This document shows positions 1,424-39,412 of a DNA stretch of 39,723 bases, in pieces (the stretch's first letter is position 1; each line of letters begins with the position of its first letter). The position numbers were made by a program, and so were the translations under genes. The DNA is from a virus, in UHGV virus genome UHGV-0092790; one strand, 5' to 3'. The notes beneath the pieces were generated by a model. It was given only the letters and a program-made list of their open reading frames with translations. It was not told the DNA's origin and did not search any database.

Positions 1424-1427
1424 TGTT

Positions 1428-2786: not shown

Positions 2787-2789
2787 TTC

Positions 2790-3415: not shown

Positions 3416-3455
3416 TGCATGTTATAATTGATATAATAAAAAAGTTCACTAGGAG

Positions 3456-3692: not shown

Positions 3693-3739
3693 TGTTTTTT
3701 TGTTTTGTTAAATAATAAGTTTTCCTTTAATGCTAAAAG

Positions 3740-4849: not shown

Positions 4850-5003
4850 AAAAAGAGAAAGGAGAAAACGTAGTTTGTTAGAGAAAAAGGAAAAAATAGT
4901 ATGTATAAAGAGAAAAGGAAGTTGATATGAGAGAAGAAGAGGGAAGAGGAAGAAAGAAAGAATAAAAAAGAAAGAAAGAAGGAGAAAGGAGAAGAAGAGA
5001 GAG
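4850..5003. repeat. polypurine (GA-rich) low-complexity tract on the plus strand, mirroring the CT tract at 3740-4065
   Basis: Read directly: ggaaaaaaagaaaaagagaaaggagaaaacg ... aagaaagaaagaaggagaaaggagaagaagagagag. Confidence 0.85.
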
Positions 5004-5438: not shown

Positions 5439-5473
5439 CAGAGGGAATAAGGATGAAATAAAGTAAAGACGGA

Positions 5474-6181
5474 ATGAGAAAGAACAGCGAAGGCGAGCTA
5501 AGAGTGAGGAGAGCGGAGGCGGAGCGAGGATTTCTGGCAGGGGTGAAGGAGATGGTGAAGATGAGAGCAGAGATGGGAGTGATGCCGTGGGGGAAGCATG
5601 TATTTTATCCAAGGATGTTGCACAAGGCGAGGCCGCAGAAGGTGAGTGATTTTTTAGTAGATGATGAGAGGTGGTATTTGAGTGTGAGGGAGGAGGATAT
5701 GGAGAAATGGTGTAGTAAGCATCATTTGAACCGGAGTGCTAGTGGGAAGTATTATTTGGGTTTATTGTTTAAGAGTACAAAATCGAGGAGTGTGAGGAGG
5801 AAGATAAGCCTTGGGACGAAAGACGAGGAGGTAGCGAAAGAGCGGAGGGAGTTGTTTTATGAGGAGTGGGAAGGGAAGCATCTGACATGGGCGCAATGTG
5901 AGGGAGCGAAGTGGAACATGAAGGTGTCTGGGTGTGCGGCGATAGGGAGCAAGAGTGCGTTGGAGAGGAAGGCGAGGGAGAAGCAGGAGAAGGCGAACCG
6001 GGAACAGGCTAAGGCAATATGCAAGGAGTTGGCATTAAAGCGAAAGGCGCAGGTAAAACTGGAAGGATTTAAAAAGAAGACGGAAGAGTTAAAGAGGAGG
6101 AGGGTGTTGATGGTAGGAGGTGTAGAGAAAATAGGAGACGCCGTAGTAAGGAGGACGAAGAGAAAAGGAGTGGAAAGGTAA
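5474..6181 (+). CDS. hypothetical basic protein (235 aa) with a K/R/E-rich C-terminus
   Basis: The ORF's N-terminal half is not low-complexity (HVFYPRMLHKARPQKVSDFLVDDERWYLSV ... SGKYYLGLLFKSTKSRSVRRKISLGTKDEEVAKERRELF). It uses the same purine-rich codons as the confident amidase and terminase genes downstream. Confidence 0.35.
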   Translation: MRKNSEGELRVRRAEAERGFLAGVKEMVKMRAEMGVMPWGKHVFYPRMLHKARPQKVSDFLVDDERWYLSVREEDMEKWCSKHHLNRSASGKYYLGLLFKSTKSRSVRRKISLGTKDEEVAKERRELFYEEWEGKHLTWAQCEGAKWNMKVSGCAAIGSKSALERKAREKQEKANREQAKAICKELALKRKAQVKLEGFKKKTEELKRRRVLMVGGVEKIGDAVVRRTKRKGVER

Positions 6182-6186
6182 AAGCT

Positions 6187-6387
6187 ATGAAAGAAAAAGA
6201 AGTAGGAATAATGGTAAAAGAGAAGAAGGAAGGAGGGTTGGAACTGCATTTGTTTCCGAGCAAGGAGGCAATGGCAAGGTGGCGAGGGGAGGACAGCGAG
6301 CATGACGTAGAGGGGCGGTATCAGGAGTGGGTATTGCCAGTAGAGGTATTGGAAGACCTTTGGGCGGCGGCGCAAGGGGAAGAGTAA
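6187..6387 (+). CDS. hypothetical small protein (66 aa)
   Basis: An ORF on the purine-rich strand. Support is weak. Confidence 0.2.
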   Translation: MKEKEVGIMVKEKKEGGLELHLFPSKEAMARWRGEDSEHDVEGRYQEWVLPVEVLEDLWAAAQGEE

Positions 6388-6519
6388 AGTTTTTTTAAAA
6401 CGTCCGGTGCAAGTGGCATCCTCAAATAACAAACAAACAATAGAAGTTGGGTGGAGGCGAGGAGGCGTGGTGCGCGAACCGCTACGTCCCGGACGGCCTA
6501 TGCCCAGCAAAGGGAAAGT

Positions 6520-7080
6520 ATGAAAATAATCGTAGATATAGGGCATGCCCGGAAGACGGGAGCGGAAGGGAATGGATTGGAAGAGCATGAGGTATCATGC
6601 GTAGTAGCGGGCTATCTGGTGGAAGAGTTGGGAAAACTTGGCCATGAGGTATTGGAGTTGGACTTTCCGAGGATGAGCAATGCGGCAGACTTGAACGAAA
6701 CGATAAAGGCGGCGAATGCGTCTGGGTACGAGGCAGGAGTATCGTTGCATTGCGACAGCGCCAGTAAAATTGTAGGAGGCAAGGAGGTATTGAATCCGGA
6801 GCCTCATGGGGCGCATGTATGCTTTTATCCGAGTAGCGTAAAAGGGGCACGGCTGGCGAGTGCGATAGCAGGAGAGCTGTGTGTATTGTTGCCGGGGAGG
6901 GCAAACAAAGTGCAGGGGCGAGCGAACCTTGCGATATTGAGGAAAACGAAGATGCCGTTTGTATTGTGTGAGTGTGGATTTATAAGCAACCCGGAGGACG
7001 CAGAGGTGATGAGGAGGCGGCCAAAGGAAATAGCGGAAGCAATAGCGAAAGGAGTGGACGCCTATGCGAGAGGAAAGTGA
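6520..7080 (+). CDS. N-acetylmuramoyl-L-alanine amidase (Amidase_3 family), the probable endolysin
   Basis: From the internal Met, the protein reads MKIIVDIGHA...GAEGNGLEEHE...VSLHCDS...LCECGFISNPEDAE. These match the Zn-binding His/Glu/His and the C-terminal E-x-GF-ISN signature of Amidase_3 cell-wall amidases. I moved the start from the track's 6451 to the ATG at 6520. Confidence 0.8.
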   Translation: MKIIVDIGHARKTGAEGNGLEEHEVSCVVAGYLVEELGKLGHEVLELDFPRMSNAADLNETIKAANASGYEAGVSLHCDSASKIVGGKEVLNPEPHGAHVCFYPSSVKGARLASAIAGELCVLLPGRANKVQGRANLAILRKTKMPFVLCECGFISNPEDAEVMRRRPKEIAEAIAKGVDAYARGK

Positions 7081-7474
7081 GGAGGCAATGGACAAAGAGG
7101 CAGTAGGAGAGTTTGTTGACAGCATCGTAATGGCCCCCGAAAGGGGAGGTGTTGACGAGAAGGCAGAGGGATTTGTGTGGGTATTGAGGAGCAAGAACAA
7201 GTTTTTGGTAAGGGAGGGGAAGAAGGACAGGAGTGGGCAAAGGTGGAAGCGGAAGCCTGAATACGCTTACATGTACTACCGAGGGATGATGGCAGGAGGG
7301 GTGCAGAAGGAAGCATCGTGCCTGTTATCGGAGGCGAAGGTGTTTGACCTGCCGTTGCCTAGGAGGAAGTATAACACGGAGGTTTGGGATGTTGTGAGGT
7401 GCAGGCTTATTGAGGAGGCAGTAGAGGAACCGATATATAGCGAAGCGGAAGCGTTGATAAAGTTTAACCGTTAG
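7064..7474 (+). CDS. putative terminase small subunit (136 aa), called from position only
   Basis: A small acidic and basic protein immediately upstream of the large terminase, ending 3 bp before it. It has no diagnostic motif. Confidence 0.3.
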   Translation: MREESEEAMDKEAVGEFVDSIVMAPERGGVDEKAEGFVWVLRSKNKFLVREGKKDRSGQRWKRKPEYAYMYYRGMMAGGVQKEASCLLSEAKVFDLPLPRRKYNTEVWDVVRCRLIEEAVEEPIYSEAEALIKFNR

Positions 7475-7476
7475 TT

Positions 7477-9057
7477 ATGGAAGTAAGCGAGATAGCCAAG
7501 TTGTTGAAAGACCCGATGTGGAGGATATCGCATTTGTATGAGATAAAACTCACGGACGGGAACATCATACCATACAAGCCGAGGAAGTTTCAGGAGGAGT
7601 TGCATCGTGCGTGTTACTGTGAGGGGAAGCGTCGTTTTTTGATACCAAAGAGTAGGCGTCAGGGGTGTTCTACGGCGATAGGGGTGATGATGGCAGACAT
7701 GGCGGCTTTTGAGGAGGGGTGGAAACTGGCGTTGGTGGACAGGACGCTGGGAGACGCAAAGGAAAAGCTGACGGACATTGTGAAGGTAGCCTTGGACAGT
7801 TTGAAGCGGAAATTACCGGGGTTGTTTGAGATAAGCTATTTCCAGTCCCGCATCATAGTGAAGATGACAGGGAGGAGGGCCAGCGAGATAGTTGGCGGTA
7901 AATATTTCCGAGGTAGTGGACTTGGTTTTGCCCACATATCAGAGCTTGGTACCATAGCGACGAGCGAACCGAAGCGAGCGGCAGAAATAGTAAACGGCAC
8001 ATTCCCTGCGGCCAAGGACGGCTTTATATTCGTAGAGACGACGGTACGAGGGGGGAAGCGAGGGGTATTCTACGAAAACGTAATGAATGCGTTGAGCGTG
8101 CCGGAGGAGGAGCGTGGGGATAAAGATTTCCATGTGGTATTTTTGCCGTGGTGGAGTGACGAGAATAATATATCGGAGGGGGTGGAGGAGATAACGCCAG
8201 CTACGGAGAGCTACTTTGAGACGCTTAGGAGCAAGAGCGGGATTGTCGTGACGGAGGCGCAAAAGCGTTGGTGGCAACAGGCCAAGAGGCAACACGGGGT
8301 GTCAATGAATGAGGAATACCCTTCGACCTTGGAAGAGGCTTTTGAGGTTCCGATGGAGGGGGCCATATTGGAGGCGGTGTTGGACAAGGCAGTACAGGAG
8401 GGTGCTTTTCGGAAGTTGGCCTATGACGCAACAAAGCCATGCTATTGCACATGGGACTTGGGAGCGCCGCTGAACACGATTAACCTTGTATTCCAGCTGG
8501 ACGGCCCCTTTATTAACGTCCTTGAGCTGGACAGTGGTTTGCATGCGAGCGAGCGCGTAGCAGAGCGTGTAACGAGGCTTAAAAGCAAATATCCGACCTT
8601 ACAGGCGAACTTCCTTCCGCATGACGGCGGGTATATGACGGACACAGGGATGACACAGGCGCAAATGTGGCAGGAGGCAGGGTTGCCGGGCATCCAGTTG
8701 TTGCCCAAATCGAAAGACAAATGGATTGGCATCAATTACCTTTTAGGGATGTTCAACATGTTTCGGTTTGACACCAACGGTACGAGCAAAGCGTACAGTT
8801 ACTGGTTGTCCTACAGGTGCAAGCCGGAGGTGGGAGAGGGAGGCGTGTTTAAGAATGAGATTGTACATGACAACGCATCCCATTGGGCAGACCCGTTGAG
8901 GTATGTAGCGGAGGCGAAAATGAACAATTTGCTTGTGCAAGGTCCAACAACCCAAGACTATAAGGCAGGAATAACATGTACATTTGGGAAATATCATCGT
9001 GAGCGAAACATTGGACATAACTGGCGAGGACGGTTTGAGCGTACTTTCCGAATCTGA
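7477..9057 (+). CDS. terL: terminase large subunit
   Basis: A 526-aa protein with a Walker A box (PKSRRQGCST) of the terminase type [KR]-x-RQ-x-G-x-S/T. Its C-terminal RNase-H-like nuclease segment carries acidic motifs (CTWDLG ... LPHDGG ... WADPLRY). Its size and its position upstream of a portal-sized gene fit. Confidence 0.85.
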   Translation: MEVSEIAKLLKDPMWRISHLYEIKLTDGNIIPYKPRKFQEELHRACYCEGKRRFLIPKSRRQGCSTAIGVMMADMAAFEEGWKLALVDRTLGDAKEKLTDIVKVALDSLKRKLPGLFEISYFQSRIIVKMTGRRASEIVGGKYFRGSGLGFAHISELGTIATSEPKRAAEIVNGTFPAAKDGFIFVETTVRGGKRGVFYENVMNALSVPEEERGDKDFHVVFLPWWSDENNISEGVEEITPATESYFETLRSKSGIVVTEAQKRWWQQAKRQHGVSMNEEYPSTLEEAFEVPMEGAILEAVLDKAVQEGAFRKLAYDATKPCYCTWDLGAPLNTINLVFQLDGPFINVLELDSGLHASERVAERVTRLKSKYPTLQANFLPHDGGYMTDTGMTQAQMWQEAGLPGIQLLPKSKDKWIGINYLLGMFNMFRFDTNGTSKAYSYWLSYRCKPEVGEGGVFKNEIVHDNASHWADPLRYVAEAKMNNLLVQGPTTQDYKAGITCTFGKYHRERNIGHNWRGRFERTFRI

Positions 9058-14557: not shown

Positions 14558-15214
14558 ATGACTGACCTAGATATTGCTAATTATGCCTTGGGGTTGTTAG
14601 GCCAATACAAAATCCAAAGCTACCCGGAAACGGGGAAAAAGTCAGTAGAAGGTCAGGCATTAGAGGCATATCTTCCATTCGCTATTCAAGATGTCATGAT
14701 TGATGGCGAATGGAACTTCGCCCGGAAAAGGGTAATCATTGAGCCGTCACCCACAGAGGTGGCGGCCTTTGGTTATCACAATGCTTTCCCGAAGCCTGAC
14801 GACTTGGTGACAATCATATCCGTGAATGGAGAGCCTTGGAACATTCAGGCGCAGTTTGTGCAGATAGAGGGAGAGTTTATCTTGGCAAACGTTGACCAGT
14901 TGAGGCTGGTTTACATTGCCGCCCCCACAGACGGGACAACGCTTCAAGGCATACCTGACCAGCTAAAACCGCTCATAGGAATCAGGTGGGCCTATCTTAC
15001 GTGTGTACGCATCACGAACAACATTGAACTCTATAACATGATAGCGGACATGTACCAGAGGGAGTTGCACAGGATGCGGGACAACGACTTCATCAACAAC
15101 ACGGGAGGCAGGTTCAACTACCGCAACAAGCTTATGAGCCAGTCCACGTGGGGCCGCTATCCGTTTGGGACGACAGCACCCTACCAAGGCTCTTATACCT
15201 ACATTCCCGATTAA
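14558..15214 (+). CDS. hypothetical virion protein (218 aa)
   Basis: An ORF in the structural operon. Confidence 0.4.
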   Translation: MTDLDIANYALGLLGQYKIQSYPETGKKSVEGQALEAYLPFAIQDVMIDGEWNFARKRVIIEPSPTEVAAFGYHNAFPKPDDLVTIISVNGEPWNIQAQFVQIEGEFILANVDQLRLVYIAAPTDGTTLQGIPDQLKPLIGIRWAYLTCVRITNNIELYNMIADMYQRELHRMRDNDFINNTGGRFNYRNKLMSQSTWGRYPFGTTAPYQGSYTYIPD

Positions 15215-18200: not shown

Positions 18201-19527
18201 CATGGAGGATAGTAATCCCTGTGTAGATTTATTCTCCACGGGGAGTACGACCGATTCAGACGCGCTTAATACAGGGGGATTTGACCCGATGAGATGGGAT
18301 TTATTCTCCACGGGGAGTACGACCGATTCAGACGCGCTTAATACAATTCTAGTCAATGGGTACTTCAAAGAAACGACTAGTAGTGAACAAGTTACGATTC
18401 AGACAAAACCAGCTGACACTCAATCCTGGGCATCAAAATTTTATTTTACCTTCGATGACGCTTCTGTTTTCAATAATCCGGCGGCTAATGGTAGCTCTGT
18501 TGAGATAACAGCATTCCTTTTTGAGAATCAATATGACCCTTCTCTAAGCCAATTACCCAAGGGGCCGTTTTATTTGTTTGTGTACGATTCAGAGACACAA
18601 GCATTATTAGCTCGCTCAAACAACTCGGTAGAGCTTCCTGACGATAAGAACCAGCTTCCTATTCTTGAGTTCCTGTTTAGCGGATTAACTGTAAACGCTA
18701 ACCAGAAAATAAAGGTTTTCTTCTCAAGCAATGAATCAGCCTCCTTTGAAGGGAATGAAGAAATATTACAGGTTTCCTGTTTTAGTGATTCTACCCATGA
18801 GACGGAATACGGATATTTCCCGTATATGGATGTCCGCACAACTGTATTGAATTCCAAGATTGAATATGACGAAACCAAGCCTGTTTATCTGGATGTCATA
18901 TCGGCAGTTGGTGAAACGACAACAGGTTATTGCTTTGGCGGGAATGATATAAATAATAATTATTCTTATTATCGTCCATCACCAGAAGGGGAAGGCTTTT
19001 TTTCCCAAAGCAAAATTGTGTTCAATGTTACAGGAGAAATTGAATCGCAAAAAGGGGAAGTCCCAAACGCTGGATTTGTTGGTAGCCCAACTTCGTTGAC
19101 CAGTGTTTTCCCTAACTTCGTTTTCGGGCTTCACATCTTTTCAGAGTTTGTGTCGATGCCGATGGGGAATGCTAACAATTACGTCATCCCGGCAACCACC
19201 ACCAAGATTAGCCAACTGCGCTATCAAGTATCACGGGATGAGGGCAACGACGTAACTCCTTCATCTTCATTTCTTAGTGATGACGGTCTGGCTTATGGTG
19301 CGCCAAGGATTCAGGCCACAGTTCAGGCATTGGACTATGATGCCCCGATAGCTATGGAAAAGAGCACTTCCATGTCGGTATCAACAAACTTGTCTAACGG
19401 GAGAGACCATATTGTATTGAGTGGACAAAGCTCTACAGATACAAGACTGTACTTTTCCTTAGATGATGCTAAAAAGGTGAACGTATTAGCGGCGTATATT
19501 CTGTATGATTCCACTATCATTAGCTGA
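15235..19527 (+). CDS. large tail protein (1430 aa), a candidate nozzle, tailspike or receptor-binding protein
   Basis: A very long ORF in the structural module. It is rich in Gly, Ser, Thr and Asn and contains a perfect internal tandem duplication (see the repeat at 18226-18345). Confidence 0.5.
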   Translation: MASNTRQFQMQLNFNGGQVSENFTPRVDMQKYQTSCSVIRNFIPRQFGMLKRRPGFGFVDSFKNPFRILKFPCTNNEEYIVCVHSDNKYESGGCKPFATIYQCGYFGDQTRRWEVNLDIDPVFMPGVNGWTADSSSERHGRFWDTDLAKIKYVSQNDKMWIVHPDFFPLELTRTAKPVQLQQTSMAEDKYVVEFDTSSNTNLSTKNSLCFGLYGVNRLNAKTQPFFTLNFKDNKSIAFGFSGSGADTKWAITTSDGVVHQLENIGVSSDQTVDFSDFNKNTPINIYCFLTWRGNKLYASIGCNNSYGTLGLYKYSSSEVEVDSSLGNLLSFVIGGTPGSSTDAQSYVSFKETFSAGSDFSGIGIKVNFGQGDVPDKSFNNNDHRTSLIMAQMFGDTSSVFKLNDYQIQQYNNSVFPIKRIYESGTNIYTEETVIEFKLTTMDFLNYPKSDDYYIRDKSQGTNPDSPMFCRNHETCPDIPYYVYEDTSFPLNTINAVFGDRYFLSDGSVPQLTGNDGTQIAEWLKEYTPGDIVIGSCLMNKTDGVLNGNIYNFSTGSNVGIPINFFRMANIVCRYVRGDWTLRTDAEVATNKGVLVSYLENSKVFSGYPSGGGYTVFRINNNWFSQPRKLSMSGSNTPGVFVGLVYIGENGTVSTDTGDAGQSIEVDNSSGAYHTDIPFSVWPNQKRLTSTTTDATVFQNLTIMPLMYAPVLDVIFENFSSNFGRGNYQITQTNISATNYYSAKFNDLVKCAFSVEKGYPSCISLRNGRLILASTKSQPQTIWASRVDRYNEFSVDDMADSGWDLTIGANQSQKIQWLSSSKDLIVGTDIGEWVLNDSDSSNPVPIIKEQSRWGSSVAQGELMTESLFFIPRDKKGVIQTIYSFQIDGYTAEDVTIMASDLFDYGITSHSIQKDPDPIWWGTTGDGRLLGLLYNRVQDINGWFQCDIQGCDINQVCCYNNTVKGEEGLAVSIQGEGGSNLVNANQYFLAFMEDSNPCVDLFSTGSTTDSDALNTGGFDPMRWDLFSTGSTTDSDALNTILVNGYFKETTSSEQVTIQTKPADTQSWASKFYFTFDDASVFNNPAANGSSVEITAFLFENQYDPSLSQLPKGPFYLFVYDSETQALLARSNNSVELPDDKNQLPILEFLFSGLTVNANQKIKVFFSSNESASFEGNEEILQVSCFSDSTHETEYGYFPYMDVRTTVLNSKIEYDETKPVYLDVISAVGETTTGYCFGGNDINNNYSYYRPSPEGEGFFSQSKIVFNVTGEIESQKGEVPNAGFVGSPTSLTSVFPNFVFGLHIFSEFVSMPMGNANNYVIPATTTKISQLRYQVSRDEGNDVTPSSSFLSDDGLAYGAPRIQATVQALDYDAPIAMEKSTSMSVSTNLSNGRDHIVLSGQSSTDTRLYFSLDDAKKVNVLAAYILYDSTIIS
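18226..18345 (+). repeat. perfect 48-bp direct repeat (18226-18273 and 18298-18345) with a 72-bp period, inside the 1430-aa gene
   Basis: Read directly: gatttattctccacggggagtacgaccgattcagacgcgcttaataca occurs twice. It encodes DLFSTGSTTDSDALNT twice, 24 aa apart. Confidence 0.9.
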
Positions 19528-20416
19528 CACAGGCGGCCTAACCGCAGATGGTTTGTTGCCATTGACAGGCTTCCCCTCATGGATGTGGGGAAGCGACATT
19601 CTTAATGGTCAACTCTGGGGTGGAACAGAAATAGCAGAGCCAGCTTACAACGAAATTTGGACAGACCCTACGACTGGTGTTACGAATGCGCTCCTACCTT
19701 CGTTGACTGGATTGGAGCCAATGAACGGCCTGTATGATATTGATTATCAGATAGGTTATCCTGAAATGCCCCAGCCGCCGACATATAACCCTAACACAAG
19801 TTATTTATCATCAACGGCTTCAATAGATACGTCAGCTGGGTTCGAGAAGTCTAGTCCCAACAAAATAGCATGGGATGACACGTTTGACCCGTTCGGCTTC
19901 AACTCTGCAACGCTTAAAGGATTTGGTAGTGTTCTTTCGGATGTATCGTCTTCCTTGAGCAAGAAGAGGACATATGCCAACTATGTCGCCAGTTATGAGA
20001 ATCGGGCACAGGCGTTAAGGAATCAAGCCGAGTCAGCATACAGGATTGCCGGAATAAACATGTCTCGCCTTCGAGGGAATCAGGCGAAATACCTAGCCCA
20101 GCAAAGGGTGTCAGCAGTCAGGACAGGCTTCGCCCCGACTTCCGGTTCCATAGGCGCTGTACAACAGGCGACAATGAGCCAGTTCGAGCAACAAATAGCT
20201 GATGCTTGGGTGGAAGCGGAACAAAAGAGGCAGAACACAATGTATCAAGCAAGCGTTGCTGATTGGCGGGCAAGCGAAGCCCGGAAGGCTAGCAAGCGCT
20301 CATCCGGTGGATTCCTTGGCTCGCTACTTGGCTCTGGTGTGGGAGCTTATTTTGGAGGCCCCACCGGAATGGCGATAGGTTCTAAGATAGGTTCATCCAT
20401 AGGAGGGTTATTTTAA
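19505..20416 (+). CDS. putative internal virion or ejection protein (303 aa) with a C-terminal glycine zipper
   Basis: The C-terminus reads SSGGFLGSLLGSGVGAYFGGPTGMAIGSKIGSSIGGLF. Its position between the large tail protein and two further large proteins parallels T7 gp14 and P22 gp7. The true start may lie downstream of 19505, which overlaps the preceding gene. Confidence 0.4.
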   Translation: MIPLSLADTGGLTADGLLPLTGFPSWMWGSDILNGQLWGGTEIAEPAYNEIWTDPTTGVTNALLPSLTGLEPMNGLYDIDYQIGYPEMPQPPTYNPNTSYLSSTASIDTSAGFEKSSPNKIAWDDTFDPFGFNSATLKGFGSVLSDVSSSLSKKRTYANYVASYENRAQALRNQAESAYRIAGINMSRLRGNQAKYLAQQRVSAVRTGFAPTSGSIGAVQQATMSQFEQQIADAWVEAEQKRQNTMYQASVADWRASEARKASKRSSGGFLGSLLGSGVGAYFGGPTGMAIGSKIGSSIGGLF

Positions 20417-20418
20417 TC

Positions 20419-22371
20419 ATGGCGATCATCGATACTAGAGACATAAGACTGGGTGTCAGTAGTGCGAACAAGGAGGGGTTGTTGCCTTCTCCTTCAAGCC
20501 GTTATTTGCGCTCCACTTATGATGCGGCCAGATATGTTCCTATTGGAAATGAGTTCGACAAAGAGAGCCGAGTAAAGGAGCTTGGAGACCTTGGAGAAGG
20601 ACTCACAATGTGGTCGAAGGCGCAAGCGGAAGTCGAGACAACGAACGACAGTATTCAGTCACGGCGCATGCAGGCAGAGTACATGGAAGCTTCCACACAG
20701 GTTTTCAATCAGCTTCAAAAAGACCCCAGCACGATGAACAATCCTGCGGTTTGGCTGGACGCCTATACGGAGGAGATGACATCAAGGGCGGCAGAGATTA
20801 ACAACAAGTATGCCAAATCGTTTTATGTTGGGCGCAATCAGATGTTGTCCAATGAAAGGCTCAACCTGTTGCTGAAAGAGGAGAAGAACAAGGTGGGCCT
20901 GATGGCGGCAGACAGAATATCAAAGATGGCCGCAGACGAAACTAATGCGGCGTTCAAGATTGCTGTGGCCAACAGGGATTTCGGGTTGGCTAGGGAGATA
21001 AATAAAAGCCCCTACCTAACACCTGCGGAAAAGATGTTGAATGAGAATGGAATTGTTCAAGCCCAGACACAAGACATCATCCAGCAGGAAACATTGAGGA
21101 ATCCTTGGGGTGTGCTGGAAGAGGTGAACAGGGATGGCGCTGTACAGCGTCGTGAATTGACCTACGAGCAACAGCAGTACGCATTGAACCAAGCGCAGGG
21201 CCGGATAAGCATGATTCAAAAGCAATCGTATGACTCTCTCGTACAGAAGTTTTTGTTCAACCCGGAAGAGTTTGAGATGGATGTCGCCAAAAAGCTATTG
21301 GACACCAACCAGCTGACGACCCAGCAATATGTCAACCTCCTCAACATGAAGAAGACCATGAGCGCCAAGATTGAGCCGACTCCAATGCAGTTTGCGGCCA
21401 TGTCTAATTGGGCGGTCAAGCTTTCAGAGGATTATCACAAAGAGTCGCCAGAGGGACAGGCCAATATCCTCTCCCAAGCTGAACGGCTTCTTGAGCGGAT
21501 GAATTTCAGCACCAGCGACAAGAACTCATTGCTCAAGCTTGTAACACAAAAGATTTCCCCGGAAACGTTCAATCAGGCTGACAAGTTGGTAGAGAAATTT
21601 TGGGATAACGGCCAACTACCTCTGACCAAGACAGCGGATTACACCGGGACCCAAGGAGGAACTACTCCGATTTATTTGACGGAGGGAGAGTTTAATACCC
21701 AGTTCAAAGAGAGGAAGAACCAGTTTTTCTTAGACAAAAGCAGGACATACCTAGACCCGAAAACGGCAAAAGACAGGTATGCGGTAATGGAGTATGTGCC
21801 GGACTCGAACAATCTGTTCCTGCAAGAAAAGATAAAAAGCGAAGTTCGTTCCGTCCTTTCTGATAAGATTGCTGAATATAGGGCAGAACACAATGGGAAA
21901 TCTCCTACCGGACAAGAGCTTTATGAGCTTGTTTTTTTCGCACAAGAAGAGGCGTTCTCCCGGAATAATATCAGCAGTATTGACCCATTATCTTCTGCCT
22001 CTGTTTATCCTTCTGGACAGCAAGACAGAGACGAAAGAAAGGCGACATTTATTCCGAACAACGTTAGAGTGTCGGCTATATCGAATAAAGCTTCTATAGA
22101 TATTCCGACTAATGGTGCTTTTATTGTTTGGGCCGGAAGTAACTCTTTCATTACAAACGAGAAAGACTACTTGAGCATATATAAACGGGCCGGGGCGCCC
22201 CCTCAAGGATTTATCGTAGCAGATGAATCTTTCCTCCAAGCTCCACACAAAGATTTAATGGATGTGCAAGCTATGATTTCGGCCAAAGCGATAGCGGCGA
22301 AAGCTGGATTAGATGCACAAGGAGAGCAGGGAATTTATTGTGCATTGCTTTCCTATTGGAATAATTTATAA
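20419..22371 (+). CDS. putative internal virion or ejection protein (650 aa)
   Basis: A helical, Q/E/K-rich protein. By synteny it corresponds to T7 gp15 and P22 gp20. Confidence 0.4.
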   Translation: MAIIDTRDIRLGVSSANKEGLLPSPSSRYLRSTYDAARYVPIGNEFDKESRVKELGDLGEGLTMWSKAQAEVETTNDSIQSRRMQAEYMEASTQVFNQLQKDPSTMNNPAVWLDAYTEEMTSRAAEINNKYAKSFYVGRNQMLSNERLNLLLKEEKNKVGLMAADRISKMAADETNAAFKIAVANRDFGLAREINKSPYLTPAEKMLNENGIVQAQTQDIIQQETLRNPWGVLEEVNRDGAVQRRELTYEQQQYALNQAQGRISMIQKQSYDSLVQKFLFNPEEFEMDVAKKLLDTNQLTTQQYVNLLNMKKTMSAKIEPTPMQFAAMSNWAVKLSEDYHKESPEGQANILSQAERLLERMNFSTSDKNSLLKLVTQKISPETFNQADKLVEKFWDNGQLPLTKTADYTGTQGGTTPIYLTEGEFNTQFKERKNQFFLDKSRTYLDPKTAKDRYAVMEYVPDSNNLFLQEKIKSEVRSVLSDKIAEYRAEHNGKSPTGQELYELVFFAQEEAFSRNNISSIDPLSSASVYPSGQQDRDERKATFIPNNVRVSAISNKASIDIPTNGAFIVWAGSNSFITNEKDYLSIYKRAGAPPQGFIVADESFLQAPHKDLMDVQAMISAKAIAAKAGLDAQGEQGIYCALLSYWNNL

Positions 22372-22378
22372 ACAAATC

Positions 22379-25300
22379 ATGGAAGAGCTTTCAGAACAAC
22401 CCGAAGATTCTATCCTGTTGGATGAAATAAAGAAAATGAATTCGGGCCTCGCTTCTAATAAGGAGCAACCTGAAATAACAGAAGAGGATTTAGAAGCAAA
22501 TCCTCAAGCTTACTCTTCTGAACAAATTGAAGGGGTTTTAAGAAACAAGAGAAGTATTCGCACAAAGCTTGACGATTATTTAAGGATGTCGTCTAGCTTG
22601 CTTCCTACTACTCCACGAGAAGCCTTAGATGCCGTAGGGACATTGCGTGAGGAACTGCAAGCAAATGGTATAGACCCGGAGTATGAGAGGTATCGTGAGA
22701 AGATAAAAAGAAACGAAGATATAGTTTATTCGGTTACTAGGTATATCAATCCAACAACAGGCTTGTTTGGGGATGTTCCTGCACAAGATGTAACAAACAA
22801 TAAGCTGGAAAAAATACTTAGTGCTGAGCAAATTAGGGATTTCAATAATGCCCCGCAGTTTATGCGAGACAAATATGTTTTCAATCGCATTGTTGAAAAC
22901 TTTTTCCCGGAAGGGGAGATGGATAAAGGGTATGCACTAGAACTCCTGAAAAAGCATTATCAAACCGACTCCATGCACGGAGTTGTCAGCAAATACGCTC
23001 AAGAGCTTCAAAGGAACAAGGATGAGGAGGCAGCATACAATGAAGCCTCTACCAGATTTTTCGATTCCTTTATAGAAACAGGAGGCGATTACCAGAAAGC
23101 AATCGACAGCTTGGAAGGCAATCTAAACCTGTATGCGGAAAACATTTTCAACCAAGAACCTGCGCTTAAATACATTTACCAGCGTGCGTATAACTCCGTC
23201 TCATGGATTAAAGATGAATACATAGAGAGCGGAGAGCTGGATTGGGACAAGATGGCAGACAGGTTGTTGAAGCTTGGGGAAGGAGAGACGTTCTCTCTAG
23301 CCATTCAGATGCTTCCCTACATGTTGCCCAAAGACAACCGGACATGGCTTGTACAGGCGATTGACGATACAGCTTCTGATATTAGCGGATTTACGAGGCT
23401 GATGCTTTCCGGTGGAGGAGATAATGCCAAAGCCGAGCGTCTTGCTTTGGCTATCCAGCAGGAGTATAGGATGGGACGCGACTATCCTACTTCATGGGTC
23501 GGAATGTTCTTTAAGGGTGCTGTTGAACAAGTACCCAAAATCACAGCAGTAACTGCCAGCACTATTGGGGCAACGGCGGCGTCAGGAGGCAATCCGGCCG
23601 TTGGGTATGCAACAGCTACAGCAGTAGGTTCTATGGTTTATGGTTCAACTGTAGCATTGGAGGCATATAGAACAAACTCATCTAAAGCTGGTTCTGTAGC
23701 GTATGGTTTATCGGTTGGAGCCTTAGAAGGTTTATTGGAAAACGCAGTAATAAAGATGGGCGCGTTAGCGGCCAAGGGAGCCAAATCTGTTGAAGTGGGA
23801 AGCAAGTTAGCAACCACATACAACAAATTACCCGGAACCGTAAGAGCCGCCGGGGCGGGCGCACTTTCTGAATATGTACAGGAAGTTTCCGCAGACCCTA
23901 TTTATATAGGCTTGGAAAATTTGATGCGCTCCGCAGGTTTTGACCTTACACAACAAAACACCTTGAGCAACTGGTGGGAGACTTTGGATTTAACACAACC
24001 AGAGCTTTTAGGGGCCACAGTGTTGCTTGGCGGTTCATTAGGAGCCGTAGGCGGTTATCAGGCAAACCACCTTATCAATAGAGTAGGAAGAAGCGCAGAA
24101 GCTCTTACAGCCTTAGGAATCCCCCAGACGGAAGCAACAGCTATTGCTAACATGCCAGATGGGAAAGAGCGCACCAATCGTCTGACAGCGGCTCTTCGAG
24201 ACAACAAGGTGAGTTCTGATGTCCAGATAACACATCAACAGGCAGGAGTGTTCCTGAACTTTTTAGCGAAGAATGCAGAAAGATTTAAGGATGTGGAGCT
24301 TATGCCTAACATCACTGATAATGGTGATGGAACCTTTAATGTTATCGAGAAAGACCCGGTAAGCGGTGCAGAAAAGACAACGACTGTTACAGATGAAATT
24401 GCTGGCACATTCATGTCTCAAGCGTTGCAGTCAAATCCGGGATTTATCAGGGCATTAAATATTTTCGCCCAAGAAGAGATAGAGTCAGGGGTGGGCAAGG
24501 AGACGAAGATAAAGAGCTATACTCCTGACGAACTCCGAGCAAAAATCCAATCCACAGAAGACAACAATGCAACTATAGCACGACTTAGGGCTTTGGCTGT
24601 AATTAACCAAGACCCAGAATTGTTGCAGAGTTTTCGTGATGGGAAAGTAAGTATTGAAGATGTAGCAAATGAGCTGGAAATTGTATCTGCATATAGAGAT
24701 GGCACGATTGCTGTTGCGAGGGGTGAAGCGAATCCTCTCAATATTCTGGAAGAAATAATTCACGCCCGTGCAATATCCGATTTGGAGAGCGGCGTTATTT
24801 CTCGAAGCGTCATTGAAACACAGGTAAGGAATTACTTGGAGTTCTTGGGACGTAGTGCGGAAGAGATAGGGGATTTGAGCAATGACGTTGTGTTGCAGGA
24901 ACATTTGGCGAATATGGGGAAGGCTTTGGCAACAACGCCGGAACTGTTTTCCGCAATGCCCGGCAATGTTCAAACAATCCTTGAGTGGCAGAAGGACGCT
25001 ATAGCGGAAGTTGGGAATGTCTTTGCGGAAGGCGCTCTGATAAAAGAGGCCATTGAGCAGGGCATTGTCTCTCCCGATTTTGTCAAGTGGTCTAAATCTT
25101 TGGCGACTATGGCCGAACGTCGTGACGGTCAGGATATGGCAGAGCTTGTCAATGGTGCGACCGGAGAAAGCATTTTGCCAATGGGCCAGAGCCTTCCTTC
25201 CGTGAGGAGGCGTGGAACCATTGATGTAACTCCTTCTGTAAGAACCATTAATGAAGCCATATCAAACATAGTCAATGGCGCATCGGAAAGGTCTATAGGC

Positions 25301-28300
25301 CAGCTCCACAAATTGCAGAGGAGCATGATAAAGCTTTCGGAAAGGTTTTCTCAAGGGAAGCTGACCGAACGAGGACAACAGAAAGCGTTACTGAATTCTG
25401 TTCTCTCTATCGCTAATGCAATGGCTTCCGGTAGCCGGAAGTTTATCTCCAACCAGCTTGCCGAAAGGCTTGCGAATCCCAAGAGCAACGAAGCGTTTAA
25501 TGCGGACATGAAGACTGCATTGGATGCCACAGTAGCGGCCTTGAACGAAAGAGCGGAGGCGGCGAGCCGGAAGCAGTTGGAGCGCATTATTCAGGACGAG
25601 ATAAACAGGAGGGTTGAGCAAGCGGACGCTAAAGCCAAGAAGGATTTCAACAGGGAAATGAAATTCCTCCGGGGTTTAATCTCCAAGGAAATAAGGAAAG
25701 ACATCAAGGAGGAAAGAGCGGAGGCGGCGGCAGAGAAGAAGCTTGCCAGTAAAAGCATACAGAGCTTGCGAAGGCTTGCCGAGAATGCTTTTAAGGACAC
25801 CAAGGGGCGCTCCCGTTCTTTGGATGCACAAGCCAGAGAGGAGACTATGGATGCCCTTGAGGTTATGGCTATGTCTCCTTCCGAAGTTGCAACCCAGCTT
25901 GAAGTCTTGGATAGCACCATAGACGAGCTTCAAAACCAGCCTGCCACAGAAGAACTTACTCTGGAACTGGAAAATCTGGAAAACCAAAAGAATCTCCTTG
26001 AGGTGTTTGGTAGTGCGTTGTATCGGGAGAAGATGCCTAACGGAAGGTATAAGTATGCTCTCAATGCACAGCAACTTGCGGAAGCAGTTAAGACATTGAA
26101 GGAGCTACAGCGTGAAGGGCGACTCCGCAGGAAAAAGGTTAATGAACGTATTGAGCGCTTCTATAATGACTTTAACGCTAAAATCAATGAGCGAGTAGGA
26201 GGAGAGAAGAATCGTGATGCCCTTAGAAAAGCCGTAACGGAAAGGGACCAACGGGGGACGGGCTTTTTGGATAGAATCTTCACGCAATTCATGAGCCTTC
26301 AACAACTCCTCGAAGTGATGTCTTCCATGAAATCCTTTAAGGACATAGGGACATTCTTGCAGAACAACGTCCAATTCGCAGAGCAACAGCGAGGGGTAGA
26401 AAAAGAAAAGGCTACGTCCAATGCGATTCGCATCATGCGTGGAATGATGGAGATTGCAGGGCAGAACTCTCCAAGGTATTTTGATGAGCTTTCTACAAAA
26501 ACTATTCCCTTTATGGGGCATGAGCTAACCAAGTATGGCCTTGTCAAAGTCTATCAGACATTGAGAGAGAAGGATGGATTGGATGTATTGAGAGAAAACC
26601 TTGGAGACAAGGGGATGGATTTCGGCAACTATCGTAAGTACCAACAGGAGTTGGAGGGCTTAAACAAGAGCCTTGATGATGGCGCCATTACTTCCGAAGA
26701 GTTTGAGTCCAAGTTGGAAGCCGTTGAAGAAGAATACCTTGCGAGGAAGGAAAAAGATATTGCCAAGCTATTGGAACTGCTTGGGCCGGATGGGCTTTAC
26801 CTTGCTGACGAATTACAGAACCTGTATCGGGAAAAAGGCGAGAAGCTACGGGCGTTCATGGCAGAGAACTATGGCCAGACGGTTATCCTTGATGACTACT
26901 ATACGCCCCGCAATATTGCCGCCTATAATACAATGCAAGAAGGGGATATGGATGCTTACAGTAAGGGACACGTCACAAGGACGGGCTTGCCCTCTTACGC
27001 AAAGCACCGGAACACTCCCTCTTCGGCGGCGCTCTCTCTGGAAATAAACCCTCTTGGGGAATATCTTCGTTATAGCTCTATCATGGAGGGGTGGATGACA
27101 GCTTCGGAACTGGTCAACTTCAACAACCGGGTATGGGCTAATCCCACAACGAATGCACAGTTGCAGAAATTATTAGGCCCAGCCAATTTCGAGGCGGCAA
27201 ACAAAGCCCTGTATTACTTCATCAACGAGGGGCGTGTGTATGCCCAAAAGAGCGTGTTGGCAGAGGTAATGGGGAAAGTGTTCCAAGTATTGGCTAAGAC
27301 AAGGATTGCTTTCTCCTTGGCTTCTCTGGTGCGCTCTGGGGCGGCTTTGTTCAACCCTATCGTTGGTAGCAACTTCTCCATGATGGAAATTATCAAAGGC
27401 GTGGCAGAGGTGACAAGCGGGAACTATAAAGGTTTTACCCTTGAAGAGCTTCGTGACTTGGAGGCAATGAAGGAACGTAAGTACCGTGGATGGGAAGACC
27501 GTGTGCTTGCCGATAAGGCATTAAGCATTCCCCTAAAAAAACAAGCGCAATGGGGATATTGGCAGGAAGCGGGCATGAGCGGCCTTATGGCTTTTGACTG
27601 GTGGAGCATATCTTTTGTGAATCAGCTGACCTCCCACATGCTTGCTAATCGCGGTTTGTCGCATGAACAGATAAGATGGGAGCTTAACAAAAACATCTAC
27701 CAGACGGCACAGCCTTTATCTACCTCCGCTAAGGCTATCCACTTGATAGGTGGAAGCTCATTTGAGCAAGCCCAGTTCCTTTTCTTGTCTGACGTGATGA
27801 ACAAGTTCGGCCTAGTGATGATGCAAGGCAAAAAGGATGTTCCTTTCTGGGAGGCTTTTCAGGGAGCCTTTCGTGTTTATACTATTGCCGCTCTTGCTAA
27901 TGGTCTCTTCAACGGCTTGGCTACAGGTTTGTTTGGCGATAAAGACAAAGAGGACGACTTCATGAGCAACTTCTTATTGACTTCGGTATTGAGTCCGATT
28001 GTTTCTGTCCCTATGTTCGGCGGGTTTGCAGAGTGGTGCGCTTCCCTTATTAGCGGTGGTAAGCAATTCAGTCTGGGACGAGCCGATATGGCTGATTTGT
28101 CCAAATCAATTCAAGGCTTAGTCAGAAGTATTGTGAAGACGTATGAGACTGTATCGGAAAAATGGGACAAGGAAGGTGCTTTGACTACCAATGATTACAT
28201 TGATATGGTTTCCTATGTAGGCAAAAATATTGGGAGTGTCGCATCGGCTACCACAATATTTGGTACTTCTGGGCAGAGTATGACCAAAGCTCTAGAGATG

Positions 28301-28540
28301 GTAGGTGCATTATCAAATGCCCTTTCACAAGCTAAGACGACCACACAGAAATTCCTTCCAGAGTCAGTAAATCCCCTCTATACCGAAAAAGAAGCTATGA
28401 AGGAGAGGGCTAGGCAGATAAGAAGGGAGAAGAAGAAGGCCAAGCAGGAAAACGGCGAAAGGTCAGCAACCTACAGAAAACTTTCACGGGAATTAAGGCA
28501 AATAAACAAACAGTTGAAGATAAGGGGCTGGGAAGACTAG
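22379..28540 (+). CDS. giant virion protein (about 2053 aa), a candidate internal core or ejection protein, or a tape-measure-like protein
   Basis: I placed the start at ATG 22379, 8 bp after the upstream stop; the track's 22313 overlaps the previous gene by 59 bp. It has N-proximal Gly/Ala-rich hydrophobic segments (GATAASGGNPAVGYATATAVGSMVYGSTVALEAY and LLGATVLLGGSLGAVGGY), long predicted coiled coils and a basic C-terminus. By synteny it corresponds to T7 gp16 and P22 gp16. Confidence 0.45.
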   Translation: MEELSEQPEDSILLDEIKKMNSGLASNKEQPEITEEDLEANPQAYSSEQIEGVLRNKRSIRTKLDDYLRMSSSLLPTTPREALDAVGTLREELQANGIDPEYERYREKIKRNEDIVYSVTRYINPTTGLFGDVPAQDVTNNKLEKILSAEQIRDFNNAPQFMRDKYVFNRIVENFFPEGEMDKGYALELLKKHYQTDSMHGVVSKYAQELQRNKDEEAAYNEASTRFFDSFIETGGDYQKAIDSLEGNLNLYAENIFNQEPALKYIYQRAYNSVSWIKDEYIESGELDWDKMADRLLKLGEGETFSLAIQMLPYMLPKDNRTWLVQAIDDTASDISGFTRLMLSGGGDNAKAERLALAIQQEYRMGRDYPTSWVGMFFKGAVEQVPKITAVTASTIGATAASGGNPAVGYATATAVGSMVYGSTVALEAYRTNSSKAGSVAYGLSVGALEGLLENAVIKMGALAAKGAKSVEVGSKLATTYNKLPGTVRAAGAGALSEYVQEVSADPIYIGLENLMRSAGFDLTQQNTLSNWWETLDLTQPELLGATVLLGGSLGAVGGYQANHLINRVGRSAEALTALGIPQTEATAIANMPDGKERTNRLTAALRDNKVSSDVQITHQQAGVFLNFLAKNAERFKDVELMPNITDNGDGTFNVIEKDPVSGAEKTTTVTDEIAGTFMSQALQSNPGFIRALNIFAQEEIESGVGKETKIKSYTPDELRAKIQSTEDNNATIARLRALAVINQDPELLQSFRDGKVSIEDVANELEIVSAYRDGTIAVARGEANPLNILEEIIHARAISDLESGVISRSVIETQVRNYLEFLGRSAEEIGDLSNDVVLQEHLANMGKALATTPELFSAMPGNVQTILEWQKDAIAEVGNVFAEGALIKEAIEQGIVSPDFVKWSKSLATMAERRDGQDMAELVNGATGESILPMGQSLPSVRRRGTIDVTPSVRTINEAISNIVNGASERSIGQLHKLQRSMIKLSERFSQGKLTERGQQKALLNSVLSIANAMASGSRKFISNQLAERLANPKSNEAFNADMKTALDATVAALNERAEAASRKQLERIIQDEINRRVEQADAKAKKDFNREMKFLRGLISKEIRKDIKEERAEAAAEKKLASKSIQSLRRLAENAFKDTKGRSRSLDAQAREETMDALEVMAMSPSEVATQLEVLDSTIDELQNQPATEELTLELENLENQKNLLEVFGSALYREKMPNGRYKYALNAQQLAEAVKTLKELQREGRLRRKKVNERIERFYNDFNAKINERVGGEKNRDALRKAVTERDQRGTGFLDRIFTQFMSLQQLLEVMSSMKSFKDIGTFLQNNVQFAEQQRGVEKEKATSNAIRIMRGMMEIAGQNSPRYFDELSTKTIPFMGHELTKYGLVKVYQTLREKDGLDVLRENLGDKGMDFGNYRKYQQELEGLNKSLDDGAITSEEFESKLEAVEEEYLARKEKDIAKLLELLGPDGLYLADELQNLYREKGEKLRAFMAENYGQTVILDDYYTPRNIAAYNTMQEGDMDAYSKGHVTRTGLPSYAKHRNTPSSAALSLEINPLGEYLRYSSIMEGWMTASELVNFNNRVWANPTTNAQLQKLLGPANFEAANKALYYFINEGRVYAQKSVLAEVMGKVFQVLAKTRIAFSLASLVRSGAALFNPIVGSNFSMMEIIKGVAEVTSGNYKGFTLEELRDLEAMKERKYRGWEDRVLADKALSIPLKKQAQWGYWQEAGMSGLMAFDWWSISFVNQLTSHMLANRGLSHEQIRWELNKNIYQTAQPLSTSAKAIHLIGGSSFEQAQFLFLSDVMNKFGLVMMQGKKDVPFWEAFQGAFRVYTIAALANGLFNGLATGLFGDKDKEDDFMSNFLLTSVLSPIVSVPMFGGFAEWCASLISGGKQFSLGRADMADLSKSIQGLVRSIVKTYETVSEKWDKEGALTTNDYIDMVSYVGKNIGSVASATTIFGTSGQSMTKALEMVGALSNALSQAKTTTQKFLPESVNPLYTEKEAMKERARQIRREKKKAKQENGERSATYRKLSRELRQINKQLKIRGWED

Positions 28541-32388: not shown

Positions 32389-32436
32389 CCTCCGCACTAC
32401 GGGCGTAAAATGCGTTAGTAGTGCGGGGTTTTTGTT
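32389..32436 (+). terminator. rho-independent terminator
   Basis: A perfect 9-bp stem (ccgcactac / gtagtgcgg) followed by ggtttttgtttg. Confidence 0.6.
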
Positions 32437-32450
32437 TGTATAGGAAAACA

Positions 32451-32843
32451 ATGAATGTTATTTGTCCATGTATGAAGACAACTTACACGTTCGAAGCGCT
32501 AGTAGAGGCTGTTGCTGTTCAGGCTGGGTTAGATACTAGTGTTCCCGAAGCTCACACTAAGGCGTGTGAGCTTGCCACATGGATGCTTGACGAAGGATAT
32601 CCTTCTATCGTCCTGACTCATGCGGCAGAGTTTGCAGAGGAAAAGGGTGTTCCTGCCAAATGGATTGCCCTTGTCAGTGCCATCATTGGTGCTGTTATTG
32701 CCTTTTTCTGCACTACTGGTTGTGCCAACACATCGTTTACTTTGTCTGGTGAACAGGGCGGGCAGATTAGCTATAGCGTTGACGAAAACGGGAACCTCAT
32801 TATCTCCGGCAAGCCTCCTGTCGTCCAAAAACTCAAGAAGTGA
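32451..32843 (+). CDS. membrane protein (about 130 aa) with one hydrophobic helix (WIALVSAIIGAVIAFFCTTGCA). It may be lysis-associated
   Basis: I moved the start to the ATG at 32451, downstream of the terminator stem. A hydrophobic segment is followed by ...TTGC.... Confidence 0.4.
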   Translation: MNVICPCMKTTYTFEALVEAVAVQAGLDTSVPEAHTKACELATWMLDEGYPSIVLTHAAEFAEEKGVPAKWIALVSAIIGAVIAFFCTTGCANTSFTLSGEQGGQISYSVDENGNLIISGKPPVVQKLKK

Positions 32844-38725: not shown

Positions 38726-39412
38726 CTATTGAACTCTTTTTTCAGGTATTAGTTTGCTATTAAATGAGTAGTATTTTTTTGAGTAATTGTAGGTCTTGGA
38801 ATATTTAGAATATCCGGTTTTGTTGCTCCAATAAACCTCATCACCATAAAAAGAGCAGTAACTATATTCTTTTTTTTGATAAGAGTCGTTCGAAAAATAA
38901 GCAAATTTGTTTTTATCCGGTCTTTCGAAATTGCCATAAAACAATATCTTTCCTTTTTTCCAAAAAACAAATTTGCTTTGGCCAATGATAGAGTTAACCA
39001 TATCATCAATGCCCTCATTTGTTTCCTTGATACCTGTTTCGCCAAAGGCTGGCAAAAACAGGTATCGGAAGAAGGTTTCACTATCGGTTAAATCTCCTTT
39101 ATTTTTTATGGAAAGAACGCCGTTGTGGCAAAAATACCAGCCGCTACCGTTCCAACCGTGAACGTTTTTTTCAGAAATAGAGCCATGAGTTTTGATTCTA
39201 GCGTGAAGAAGGACTACGTAATCATTAGGAATTTTTTCCCATGTGGCCACAACTTCCTTTTTTAGAAGAGTTCTAATTAGAAATTCCGGGTTATCGTCTT
39301 TGTGTCCTCTCTTAAAACCTAGCAGGAAAAATCCGTCTGGATTATTTGTTAGGCAATTTTGAAAACGTTGAGTGCCGATATCTTTCTTGAATCCGTAAGC
39401 AATGATACACAT
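38726..39412 (-). CDS. class-II (Ntn-hydrolase) glutamine amidotransferase-like protein, YafJ-like
   Basis: Cys2 sits directly after the initiator Met (MCIIAYG), as the N-terminal nucleophile. Downstream it reads LLHARIKTHGSISEKNVHGW ... YFCHNGVL, matching the R-x-AT-x-G ... N-x-HP ... HNG pattern of class-II amidotransferase domains. Confidence 0.6.
   Translation of the reverse strand: MCIIAYGFKKDIGTQRFQNCLTNNPDGFFLLGFKRGHKDDNPEFLIRTLLKKEVVATWEKIPNDYVVLLHARIKTHGSISEKNVHGWNGSGWYFCHNGVLSIKNKGDLTDSETFFRYLFLPAFGETGIKETNEGIDDMVNSIIGQSKFVFWKKGKILFYGNFERPDKNKFAYFSNDSYQKKEYSYCSFYGDEVYWSNKTGYSKYSKTYNYSKKYYSFNSKLIPEKRVQ

Follow-up and report, generated by a model that had tools for sequence, protein, structure and literature searches.

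The UHGV virus genome UHGV-0092790 was analysed as one strand of 39,723 nucleotides (nt), referred to below as the window. Between a large tail gene and a tail-fibre gene it carries, on the plus strand, three consecutive open reading frames (ORFs) of 303, 650 and about 2053 amino acids (aa). A first-pass annotation, made from the letters of the DNA, had placed the three ORFs there and proposed that they encode a trio of internal ejection proteins like those of phages T7 and P22, with an unusually large third member, here called the giant, that might carry additional enzymatic domains. All three ORFs are found where they had been described; the large gene upstream is a homologue of the tail tubular B (nozzle) protein (phrog_376), and the fibre gene downstream encodes a Phage_tail_C protein.

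Three genes between nozzle and fibre

Upstream of the trio the window holds, in order, genes for a terminase, a T7-type portal (PF12236, E 1e-49), a probable scaffold, a capsid protein (PF19821), a 180-aa ORF, tubular A and tubular B. Followed through to the fibre gene, the succession of portal, scaffold, capsid, tubular A, tubular B, small, medium, giant and fibre is that of a T7-like podovirus, as judged from Pfam and PHROG matches (Table 1). Packing on the same strand is tight, with an overlap of 23 nt between the 1430-aa tail gene and the 303-aa ORF and gaps of 2 nt and 7 nt between the genes that follow. For the giant, a start at 22379 is chosen by several gene calls (for example that of P0001), and the giant gene of relatives likewise opens directly behind the upstream stop (L037 at 6185, L059 at 6746).

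Table 1. Genes of the locus and regions of the giant protein, in window coordinates
Feature	Coordinates	Strand	Basis or remark
Tail tubular A-like gene	14558-15214	+	phrog_394, E 4.5e-23
Tail tubular B/nozzle-like gene, 1430 aa	15235-19527	+	phrog_376, E 3.2e-71; directly upstream of the trio
303-aa ORF	19505..20416	+	gp14 position
650-aa ORF	20419..22371	+	gp15 position
Giant ORF	22313-28540	+	2075 aa from first ATG; gp16 position
Giant, 2053-aa form	22379..28540	+	ATG at 22379, 8 nt past the stop of the 650-aa ORF
Giant aa 1-330, N-terminal helical domain	22379..23368	+	AF2 helices; conserved in P0122-P0125
Giant aa 331-640, Gly/Ala-rich weakly hydrophobic region	23369..24298	+	Composition, hydropathy; candidate membrane-inserting segments
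Giant aa 641-930, small beta-sheet (644-671) and helical domain with EExxHA (791-796)	24299..25168	+	AF2
Giant aa 931-1000, cargo-insertion site of relatives, empty in the window's copy	25169..25378	+	MAFFT map
Giant aa 1001-1300, Pro/Gly-poor helical region, 31-39% charged	25379..26278	+	Composition, heptad analysis
Giant aa 1350-2000, conserved C-terminal module	26426..28378	+	Best-conserved part across the family
Giant aa 2001-2053, basic, highly charged C-terminal tail	28379..28537	+	51% K/R/D/E, K/R-rich; heptad signal present
Tail-fibre-like gene, 262 aa	28571..29359	+	Pfam Phage_tail_C tip domain, E 7.7e-7, above gathering score; directly downstream of the trio

The arrangement of small, medium and large consecutive genes between tubular B and fibre, the slots of gp14, gp15 and gp16 in T7, is kept in two further lineages, L037 (309, 663 and 2029 aa) and L059 (281, 670 and 2032 aa, within a series that reads 217, 1018, 281, 670, 2032 and 374 aa from tubular A to fibre). 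Identity to the proteins of the window is 48-50% for the 303-aa protein, 38-40% for the 650-aa protein and ~36-38% for the giant. With order and sizes recurring in two other lineages, the trio is no chance feature.

Correspondence in position can be set beside tests of homology to the T7 proteins gp14, gp15 and gp16, which belong to phrog_805, phrog_1339 and phrog_342, respectively. The hhalign comparisons covered T7 gp14, gp15 and gp16, multi-member alignments of these three, gp14 and gp15 of Alteromonas phage ZP6, phi24B gp47 and N4 gp50, with the P22 proteins lying outside the comparison. The 303-aa protein has a variable N-terminal half, a conserved helical core (aa ~160-260) and a C-terminal glycine zipper (aa 267-303) that is its single weakly hydrophobic stretch; weak Pfam Gly-zipper matches were also obtained. 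It matches phrog_418, annotated as “internal virion protein,” at E 4.4e-5, and the L059 orthologue matches the same PHROG at E 0.006. No match to phrog_805, the T7-type gp14 family, was found, and hhalign to gp14 gave E 0.7; the gp14 proteins of T7, phiKMV and SP6, used as positive controls, do match that family. Its members have ~181-240 aa and four to five predicted transmembrane helices, whereas the first protein of the trio has 303 aa.

The 650-aa protein is charged and without a strongly hydrophobic stretch. It contains no recognisable domain, with no significant Pfam match and no PHROG match at E<=0.01; at E<=5 the sole PHROG match is the unrelated phrog_24626 (E 0.19), and searches of the PDB and of phage genomes both returned nothing. 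Similarity to the gp15-position proteins of T7, phiKMV, SP6 and ZP6 is likewise absent (hhalign E 0.34-0.74), and the protein falls in neither of the gp15 families phrog_1339 and phrog_2083.

For the giant, neither the whole protein nor ~500-aa tiles matched phrog_342 at E<=5, in a test for which the positive controls gave 9e-92 (ZP6), 5e-247 (phiKMV gp37) and 9e-92 or better (T7). Alignment by hhalign gave E>0.3 with T7 gp16 and E>0.4, in every region, with a four-member gp16 alignment. The equivalent of the giant in ZP6, the closest cultured phage by portal, is a 1203-aa member of phrog_342. PDB sequence searches with the three proteins, as single sequences and as family profiles, matched nothing, nor did megablast and tblastn searches of the region and of each trio protein against 50,697 phage genomes. 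As judged from gene order and profiles, the trio occupies the predicted ejection-protein slots without detectable orthology to T7-type proteins. What stands of the first-pass proposal of a T7/P22-like ejection trio is thus the gene order, the phrog_418 match and a set of gp16-like C-terminal features described below; homology to T7 gp14, gp15 and gp16 was not detected, and P22 was outside the direct comparison.

The giant protein, its family and its C-terminal module

Modelled by AlphaFold2 (AF2) in two halves, with the family as the alignment, the giant is mostly helical, with a mean predicted local distance difference test (pLDDT) score of 56 for aa 1-1020 and 62 for aa 1290-2053. Block means for aa ~60-310, within the N-terminal helical domain, are 56-86 and mostly 75-86. 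The region beyond this domain includes the Gly-rich hydrophobic segments noted at first pass, which composition and hydropathy place at residues 400-600 (Gly 11-15%, Ala 11-20%). Uncharged stretches extend over 385-430, 440-464 and 542-566, and the density of [GAS]xxx[GAS] motifs in aa 331-640 is 0.12 per residue, compared with 0.02-0.06 in other regions except aa 1800-1900 (0.09). Most of aa 331-640 has pLDDT <50, and its Gly positions are conserved family-wide. In aa 641-930, residues E791, E792, H795 and D801 mark conserved columns; the idea that the EExxHA motif is a catalytic site was discarded, since the relatives P0123 and P0147 have Arg in place of the His.

The first-pass annotation had also predicted hundreds of residues of coiled coil. 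Long helices are indeed expected at ~1000-1300, where the sequence is nearly free of Pro and Gly and is charged, but heptad periodicity there is patchy, and residues 1023-1176 are E/R/K-rich and single-helix-like. A canonical coiled coil across hundreds of residues was therefore dropped in favor of an E/R/K-rich single helix with patchy heptads. At aa 1083 (nt ~25625) lies a strain-variable indel, where the close relatives P0062, P0070, P0074, P0087, P0102 and P0093 are longer by 69 or 53 aa, all of it E/R/K helix. This strain-level length polymorphism of a charged helix fits a spacer role.

Proteins of the gp16 type have 609-1337 aa, C-terminal putative transmembrane helices and basic C-termini (PMC8954989). 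The giant, at 2053 aa, is larger than these counterparts, as had been claimed for it, and the surplus length is helical scaffold, including the length-variable E/R/K helix. The C-terminal features of gp16-like proteins are present in the form of three hydrophobic stretches or helices in the C-terminal module, or C-module (1643-1661, 1833-1851 and 1865-1883), and of the K/R-rich last 53 aa. Residues ~1310-1620, with pLDDT 70-93, are the only well-modelled part of the C-terminal half.

The C-module also provides the connection to other phage proteins. A Foldseek search of the C-terminal AF2 model against BFVD gave 19 matches at E<=0.001, the best at 5.6e-9 and probability 1.0. Each spans 700-980 columns, and for the most part the matched entry is the second or third segment of a giant protein encoded by an uncultured phage. 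About half are nameless in the tables used; names borne by the others include “ART-PolyVal-like domain-containing protein,” “PolyVal ADP-ribosyltransferase,” [quoted passage not shown] “Nuclease” and “Type I restriction enzyme,” with A0A6J5P0I5, A0A8S5V458 and A0A8S5TNF1 as examples of the polyvalent type. At the level of sequence, the family C-module (giant ~1430-1912) aligns by hhalign with residues 3324-3840 of P0147 over 455 columns (probability 98%, E 2.3e-13), and hmmsearch of the C-module against P0147 gives 87.8 bits. P0147 is a protein of 3916 aa with the domains LPD3, ART-PolyVal and PBECR5. By fold and by sequence, the C-module is thus a conserved element of phage polyvalent proteins, annotated by neither Pfam nor PHROGs. 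At L062:4827-18777, a 736-aa gene overlaps the start of the P0147 gene, and smaller genes lie further upstream; these upstream genes have no PHROG match, and hhalign detects no similarity between them and the 303-aa and 650-aa proteins of the window.

The giant has 291 detectable homologues, of which the top 120 are at least 88% identical to it and lie on metagenomic contigs of ~38-41 kb. An exhaustive HMMER search, with aa 854-2053 as the query and 1.84 billion cluster representatives as the target, returned only 26 proteins, and the family is very small, amounting to ~8 clusters at 50% identity among these representatives. The 26 include fragments of the window's own phage group; the other members listed, with their identity to the window's giant, are P0122 (2029 aa, 38%), P0123 (3151 aa, 38%), P0124 (2120 aa, 28%), P0125 (2498 aa, 29%), P0126 (1096 aa, 27%) and P0127 (1220 aa, 25%), the last two without the N-terminal regions, and P0145 (519 aa, 23%), which corresponds to the C-terminal part only. 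With a profile of distant relatives as the query, only P0124 and P0147 were returned, and with the C-module of P0147, only three fragments.

Full-length members are collinear in a MAFFT alignment, and cargo is confined to a single site corresponding to giant aa ~930-1000. P0125 carries there an insert of ~540 aa with the Pfam domains LPD3 and MuF_C, the latter a BECR-type RNase of phages (PMC5512222); this MuF-C insert is 29% identical (E 1e-10) to residues 1732-1888 of gp47 of phage phi24B. P0123 carries at the same fixed site an insert of ~1000 aa that includes a HEFTH motif, of the HExxH type, and has no Pfam match.

No such cargo was recognised in the window's copy, where additional enzymatic domains had been suspected. 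Pfam finds no domain in the giant, and six overlapping ~500-aa tiles gave nothing against Pfam or PHROG at E<=5. Transglycosylase, peptidase, polymerase and nuclease domains or folds were all sought with Pfam, PHROG tiles and Foldseek against the PDB and none was found. The giant has no HExxH motif, and its 2053 residues include one Cys and 13 His. Enzymatic extras sit instead in relatives such as P0125 and P0147.

For polyvalent proteins, packaging and injection have been predicted, and they have been interpreted as conflict effectors (Iyer, Burroughs, Anand, de Souza and Aravind 2017, PMC5512222). A combination of at least two disparate activities in one polypeptide, which typifies them, is seen in P0125 and P0147 and is not seen in the giant, whose C-module is nevertheless homologous to regions of bona fide polyvalent proteins and whose gene, between those for nozzle and fibre, has a late, virion-type neighborhood. 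From the homology of the C-module, together with the restriction of inserts to a fixed site in relatives only, the giant is therefore best read as an effector-free, minimal and cargo-less member of the polyvalent scaffold in the gp16 slot.

The ejection reading and its rivals

Taken together, the evidence makes the trio the probable internal virion (ejection) proteins of a human-gut podovirus that is still uncultured; they fill the slots of gp14, gp15 and gp16, and the giant is built on an effector-free polyvalent scaffold. The ejection part of this interpretation rests on position, on co-conservation and on one weak phrog_418 match, not on homology. Under such a model, the trio would be packaged in the capsid near the portal and would exit through the nozzle on adsorption. 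The 303-aa protein would then enter the outer membrane via its glycine zipper, the soluble 650-aa protein would form or line a periplasmic conduit, and the giant would insert into the inner membrane through its Gly/Ala-rich region and its C-terminal hydrophobic helices, with the basic tail facing DNA or the cytoplasm and the E/R/K helix acting as a spacer of adjustable length. Relatives may use the same chassis to carry an RNase, an ADP-ribosyltransferase or the HExxH region into the host. Published work favors the model on three counts, namely the predicted packaging and injection of polyvalent proteins (PMC5512222), the cargo-bearing giant gp50 of N4 and the presence of phi24B gp47 in virions (bioRxiv 10.64898/2026.04.10.717836).

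Several observations weigh against this interpretation. The three proteins have no profile homology to the ejection proteins of T7, phiKMV, SP6 and ZP6, to the virion RNA polymerase (vRNAP) of N4 or to phi24B gp47; the phrog_418 matches are weak, and the gp14 proteins tested (T7, phiKMV and SP6) all fall outside phrog_418. Packaging of the trio in virions is itself an inference. The TM-scores of the BFVD matches are low (0.23-0.33), as is to be expected because the regions compared are long, flexible and helical. Outside the C-module, the N-terminal scaffold is collinear with P0147 at a level that is not significant (E 0.024-0.33); the collinear pairs, giant first, include MPNITDNGDGTF with LPHVEATGDGKV and ILEEIIHARA with MLDEVVRARA. 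Against the PDB, Foldseek matched neither AF2 half at E<=0.001, and AF2 confidence is low for ~40% of the giant, which makes the missing enzymatic folds weak negative evidence. Finally, a diderm envelope is only assumed from the T7-type nozzle, and the sole genome match is binned to Collinsella, which is Gram-positive.

A broader and more tentative proposal is that the family constitutes an unrecognised class of podovirus ejectosome subunit organised as a modular “delivery chassis.” In this conceivable arrangement, the C-module would serve packaging or membrane translocation in many phage polyvalent proteins, the single site at aa ~930-1000 would accept arbitrary cargo, the E/R/K helix would act as a spacer, and the window's copy would be a cargo-free form that has displaced the ancestral gp16.

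One alternative leaves the giant in the virion but assigns it a different task, namely that its packaging and injection serve only to take over the host or to counter its defences, with the conduit built by the 303-aa protein, the 650-aa protein or others. Polyvalent proteins are the sole detectable homologues outside the family, and their reading as conflict effectors (PMC5512222) lends this idea some appeal. It is nonetheless unlikely, as the window's copy has no recognisable effector domain and the hydrophobic, helical C-module is kept in proteins from 2053 aa to 3916 aa, a pattern that fits a role in delivery or at the membrane. Moreover, T7-type ejectosomes need a large inner-membrane component, and for this the window shows no second candidate.

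A second alternative, closest to the first-pass suggestion, is that the giant is a diverged orthologue of T7 gp16 or P22 gp16, enlarged by enzymatic domains such as a cell-wall hydrolase, nuclease or polymerase. Its genomic slot is that of gp16, lytic domains do occur in T7 gp16 and phiKMV gp36, and the low AF2 confidence over ~40% of the protein leaves room for a hidden domain. This orthology is disfavored, and we regard it as very unlikely, because the phrog_342 and hhalign tests are negative although the ZP6, phiKMV and T7 controls work. Against enlargement by enzymatic domains stand the lack of a Pfam enzyme domain, a PDB fold or HExxH, the divergence of EExxHA in P0123 and P0147, and the mapping of the extra length to helical scaffold and E/R/K helix. 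That the giant belongs to the tail of a long-tailed phage, as a tape-measure or another external protein, is scarcely credible: its Gly/Ala-rich hydrophobic segments and long helices do resemble tape-measure proteins, a few of which appear low in the BFVD list (E>=0.037, probability <=0.18), but the portal, tubular A and tubular B are of T7 type, the genome has ~40 kb, genes for a tail tube, a sheath or a tape-measure chaperone were not recognised, and the strong fold matches are all of the polyvalent type.

Of the components of short-tailed phages, ejection proteins are among those understood least, and descriptions of polyvalent proteins have so far centered on the effector domains. The locus joins the two, as the same C-module occurs both in a cargo-free scaffold that takes the place of gp16 and in giants of 2500-3900 aa loaded with effectors. 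If the chassis proposal is true, it offers a testable model of protein-cargo delivery by phages, consisting of a chassis, one insertion site and a spacer, and a natural template for the engineering of phage-delivered proteins. The locus also serves as a reminder that “gp16” labels based on synteny can conceal non-orthologous replacements.

The phage and its comparison with known systems

The portal's best cultured relatives are 21-23% identical and include Alteromonas phage ZP6, the pelagiphage HTVC010P group, Bordetella phage BPP-1 and phiV10. In human-gut metagenomes the phage is found commonly, with 2494 and 692 sequences in individual 90%-identity clusters of the giant, so that material for proteomics should be obtainable. 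Almost all IMG/VR loci with the giant come from one dataset, which we take to be a human-gut virus collection. Scans of IMG/VR, JGI metagenomes and GTDB, made to find a host or more distant relatives, yielded nothing beyond the same gut lineages and a single Collinsella-binned contig. This contig, the only GTDB match (L041, CALLSU010000153.1, 3.9 kb), belongs to a metagenome-assembled genome of an uncultured Collinsella and shows 45% identity over giant aa 83-513. Its presence there is probably a binning artefact, and it is also the sole host hint.

Among the other genes of the window are those for an Amidase_3 endolysin, a PD-(D/E)XK/DUF2800 exonuclease, a RuvC-like resolvase and a DnaC-like loader. 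Polymerases, whether for RNA or DNA, and integrases were not recognised among the window's genes, and no terminal direct repeat was found in the window. The tubular-B/nozzle homologue has 1430 aa, compared with 794 aa in T7 and ~1000 aa in related lineages, and its gene contains an exact 48-nt direct repeat (18226-18273 and 18298-18345, at a spacing of 72 nt) that duplicates the peptide DLFSTGSTTDSDALNT. An ORF at 32421-32843 encodes a hydrophobic stretch followed by Cys (…AFFCTTGC…) and may be a lipoprotein or spanin gene, which would suggest a diderm host. Positions 1-4000 have a GC content of 30-33%, against 43-55% elsewhere, and minus-strand genes; an amidoligase-like protein is encoded at 167-1423 (weak PF12224, phrog_2443), and at the other end an ORF at 38726-39412 is weakly GATase-like. 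Together, 1-4000 and 38726-39412 may form a compositionally distinct early or accessory module. Positions 5000-8000 show an extreme GC skew of +0.4 to +0.7 with a purine-rich coding strand, and the E/K/G/R-rich products of the ORFs at 5004-5438 and 5474-6181 match no family.

With the T7 ejectosome the trio shares the place between tubular B and fibre, the small, medium and large sizes and a membrane-active motif in the first protein; the lytic transglycosylase domain of that system was not found in the giant. The N4-like phages (Schitoviridae) offer a precedent, in that their third ejection protein is a giant with cargo, gp50, the vRNAP of 3500 aa, which acts together with gp51 and gp52. The cargo of N4 gp50, an RNA polymerase and a metallopeptidase, sits between regions needed for injection and for encapsidation. 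The giant aligns with N4 gp50 only at E 0.18 (hhalign), and an RNA polymerase domain is absent from it in Pfam, PHROG and PDB-fold searches. As a separate observation on gp16-type proteins, residues 415-563 of phiKMV gp37 (L066:7567-11580) match phrog_2206, “virion RNA polymerase,” at E 2.5e-17, which hints at a segment common to gp16-type proteins and N4-like vRNAPs.

The Stx phage phi24B supplies a parallel of another kind. Its gp47 is a polyvalent protein of 2811 aa with LPD5, LPD1, LPD38 and MuF-C domains. Mass spectrometry of virions of this podovirus detected it, and a role in ejection has been proposed (bioRxiv 10.64898/2026.04.10.717836). Like the giant, it is a giant podovirus protein with polyvalent affinities, but it has no similarity to the family C-module or scaffold that hhalign can detect, and its gene lies at the far end of the late region, whereas that of the giant follows directly after the nozzle gene. 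Compared with polyvalent proteins in general, the window's giant differs in having no effector or peptidase domain; it resembles them in a homologous C-terminal module of ~500-700 aa, in its late-gene setting, in its mostly helical structure outside the cargo and in its giant size.

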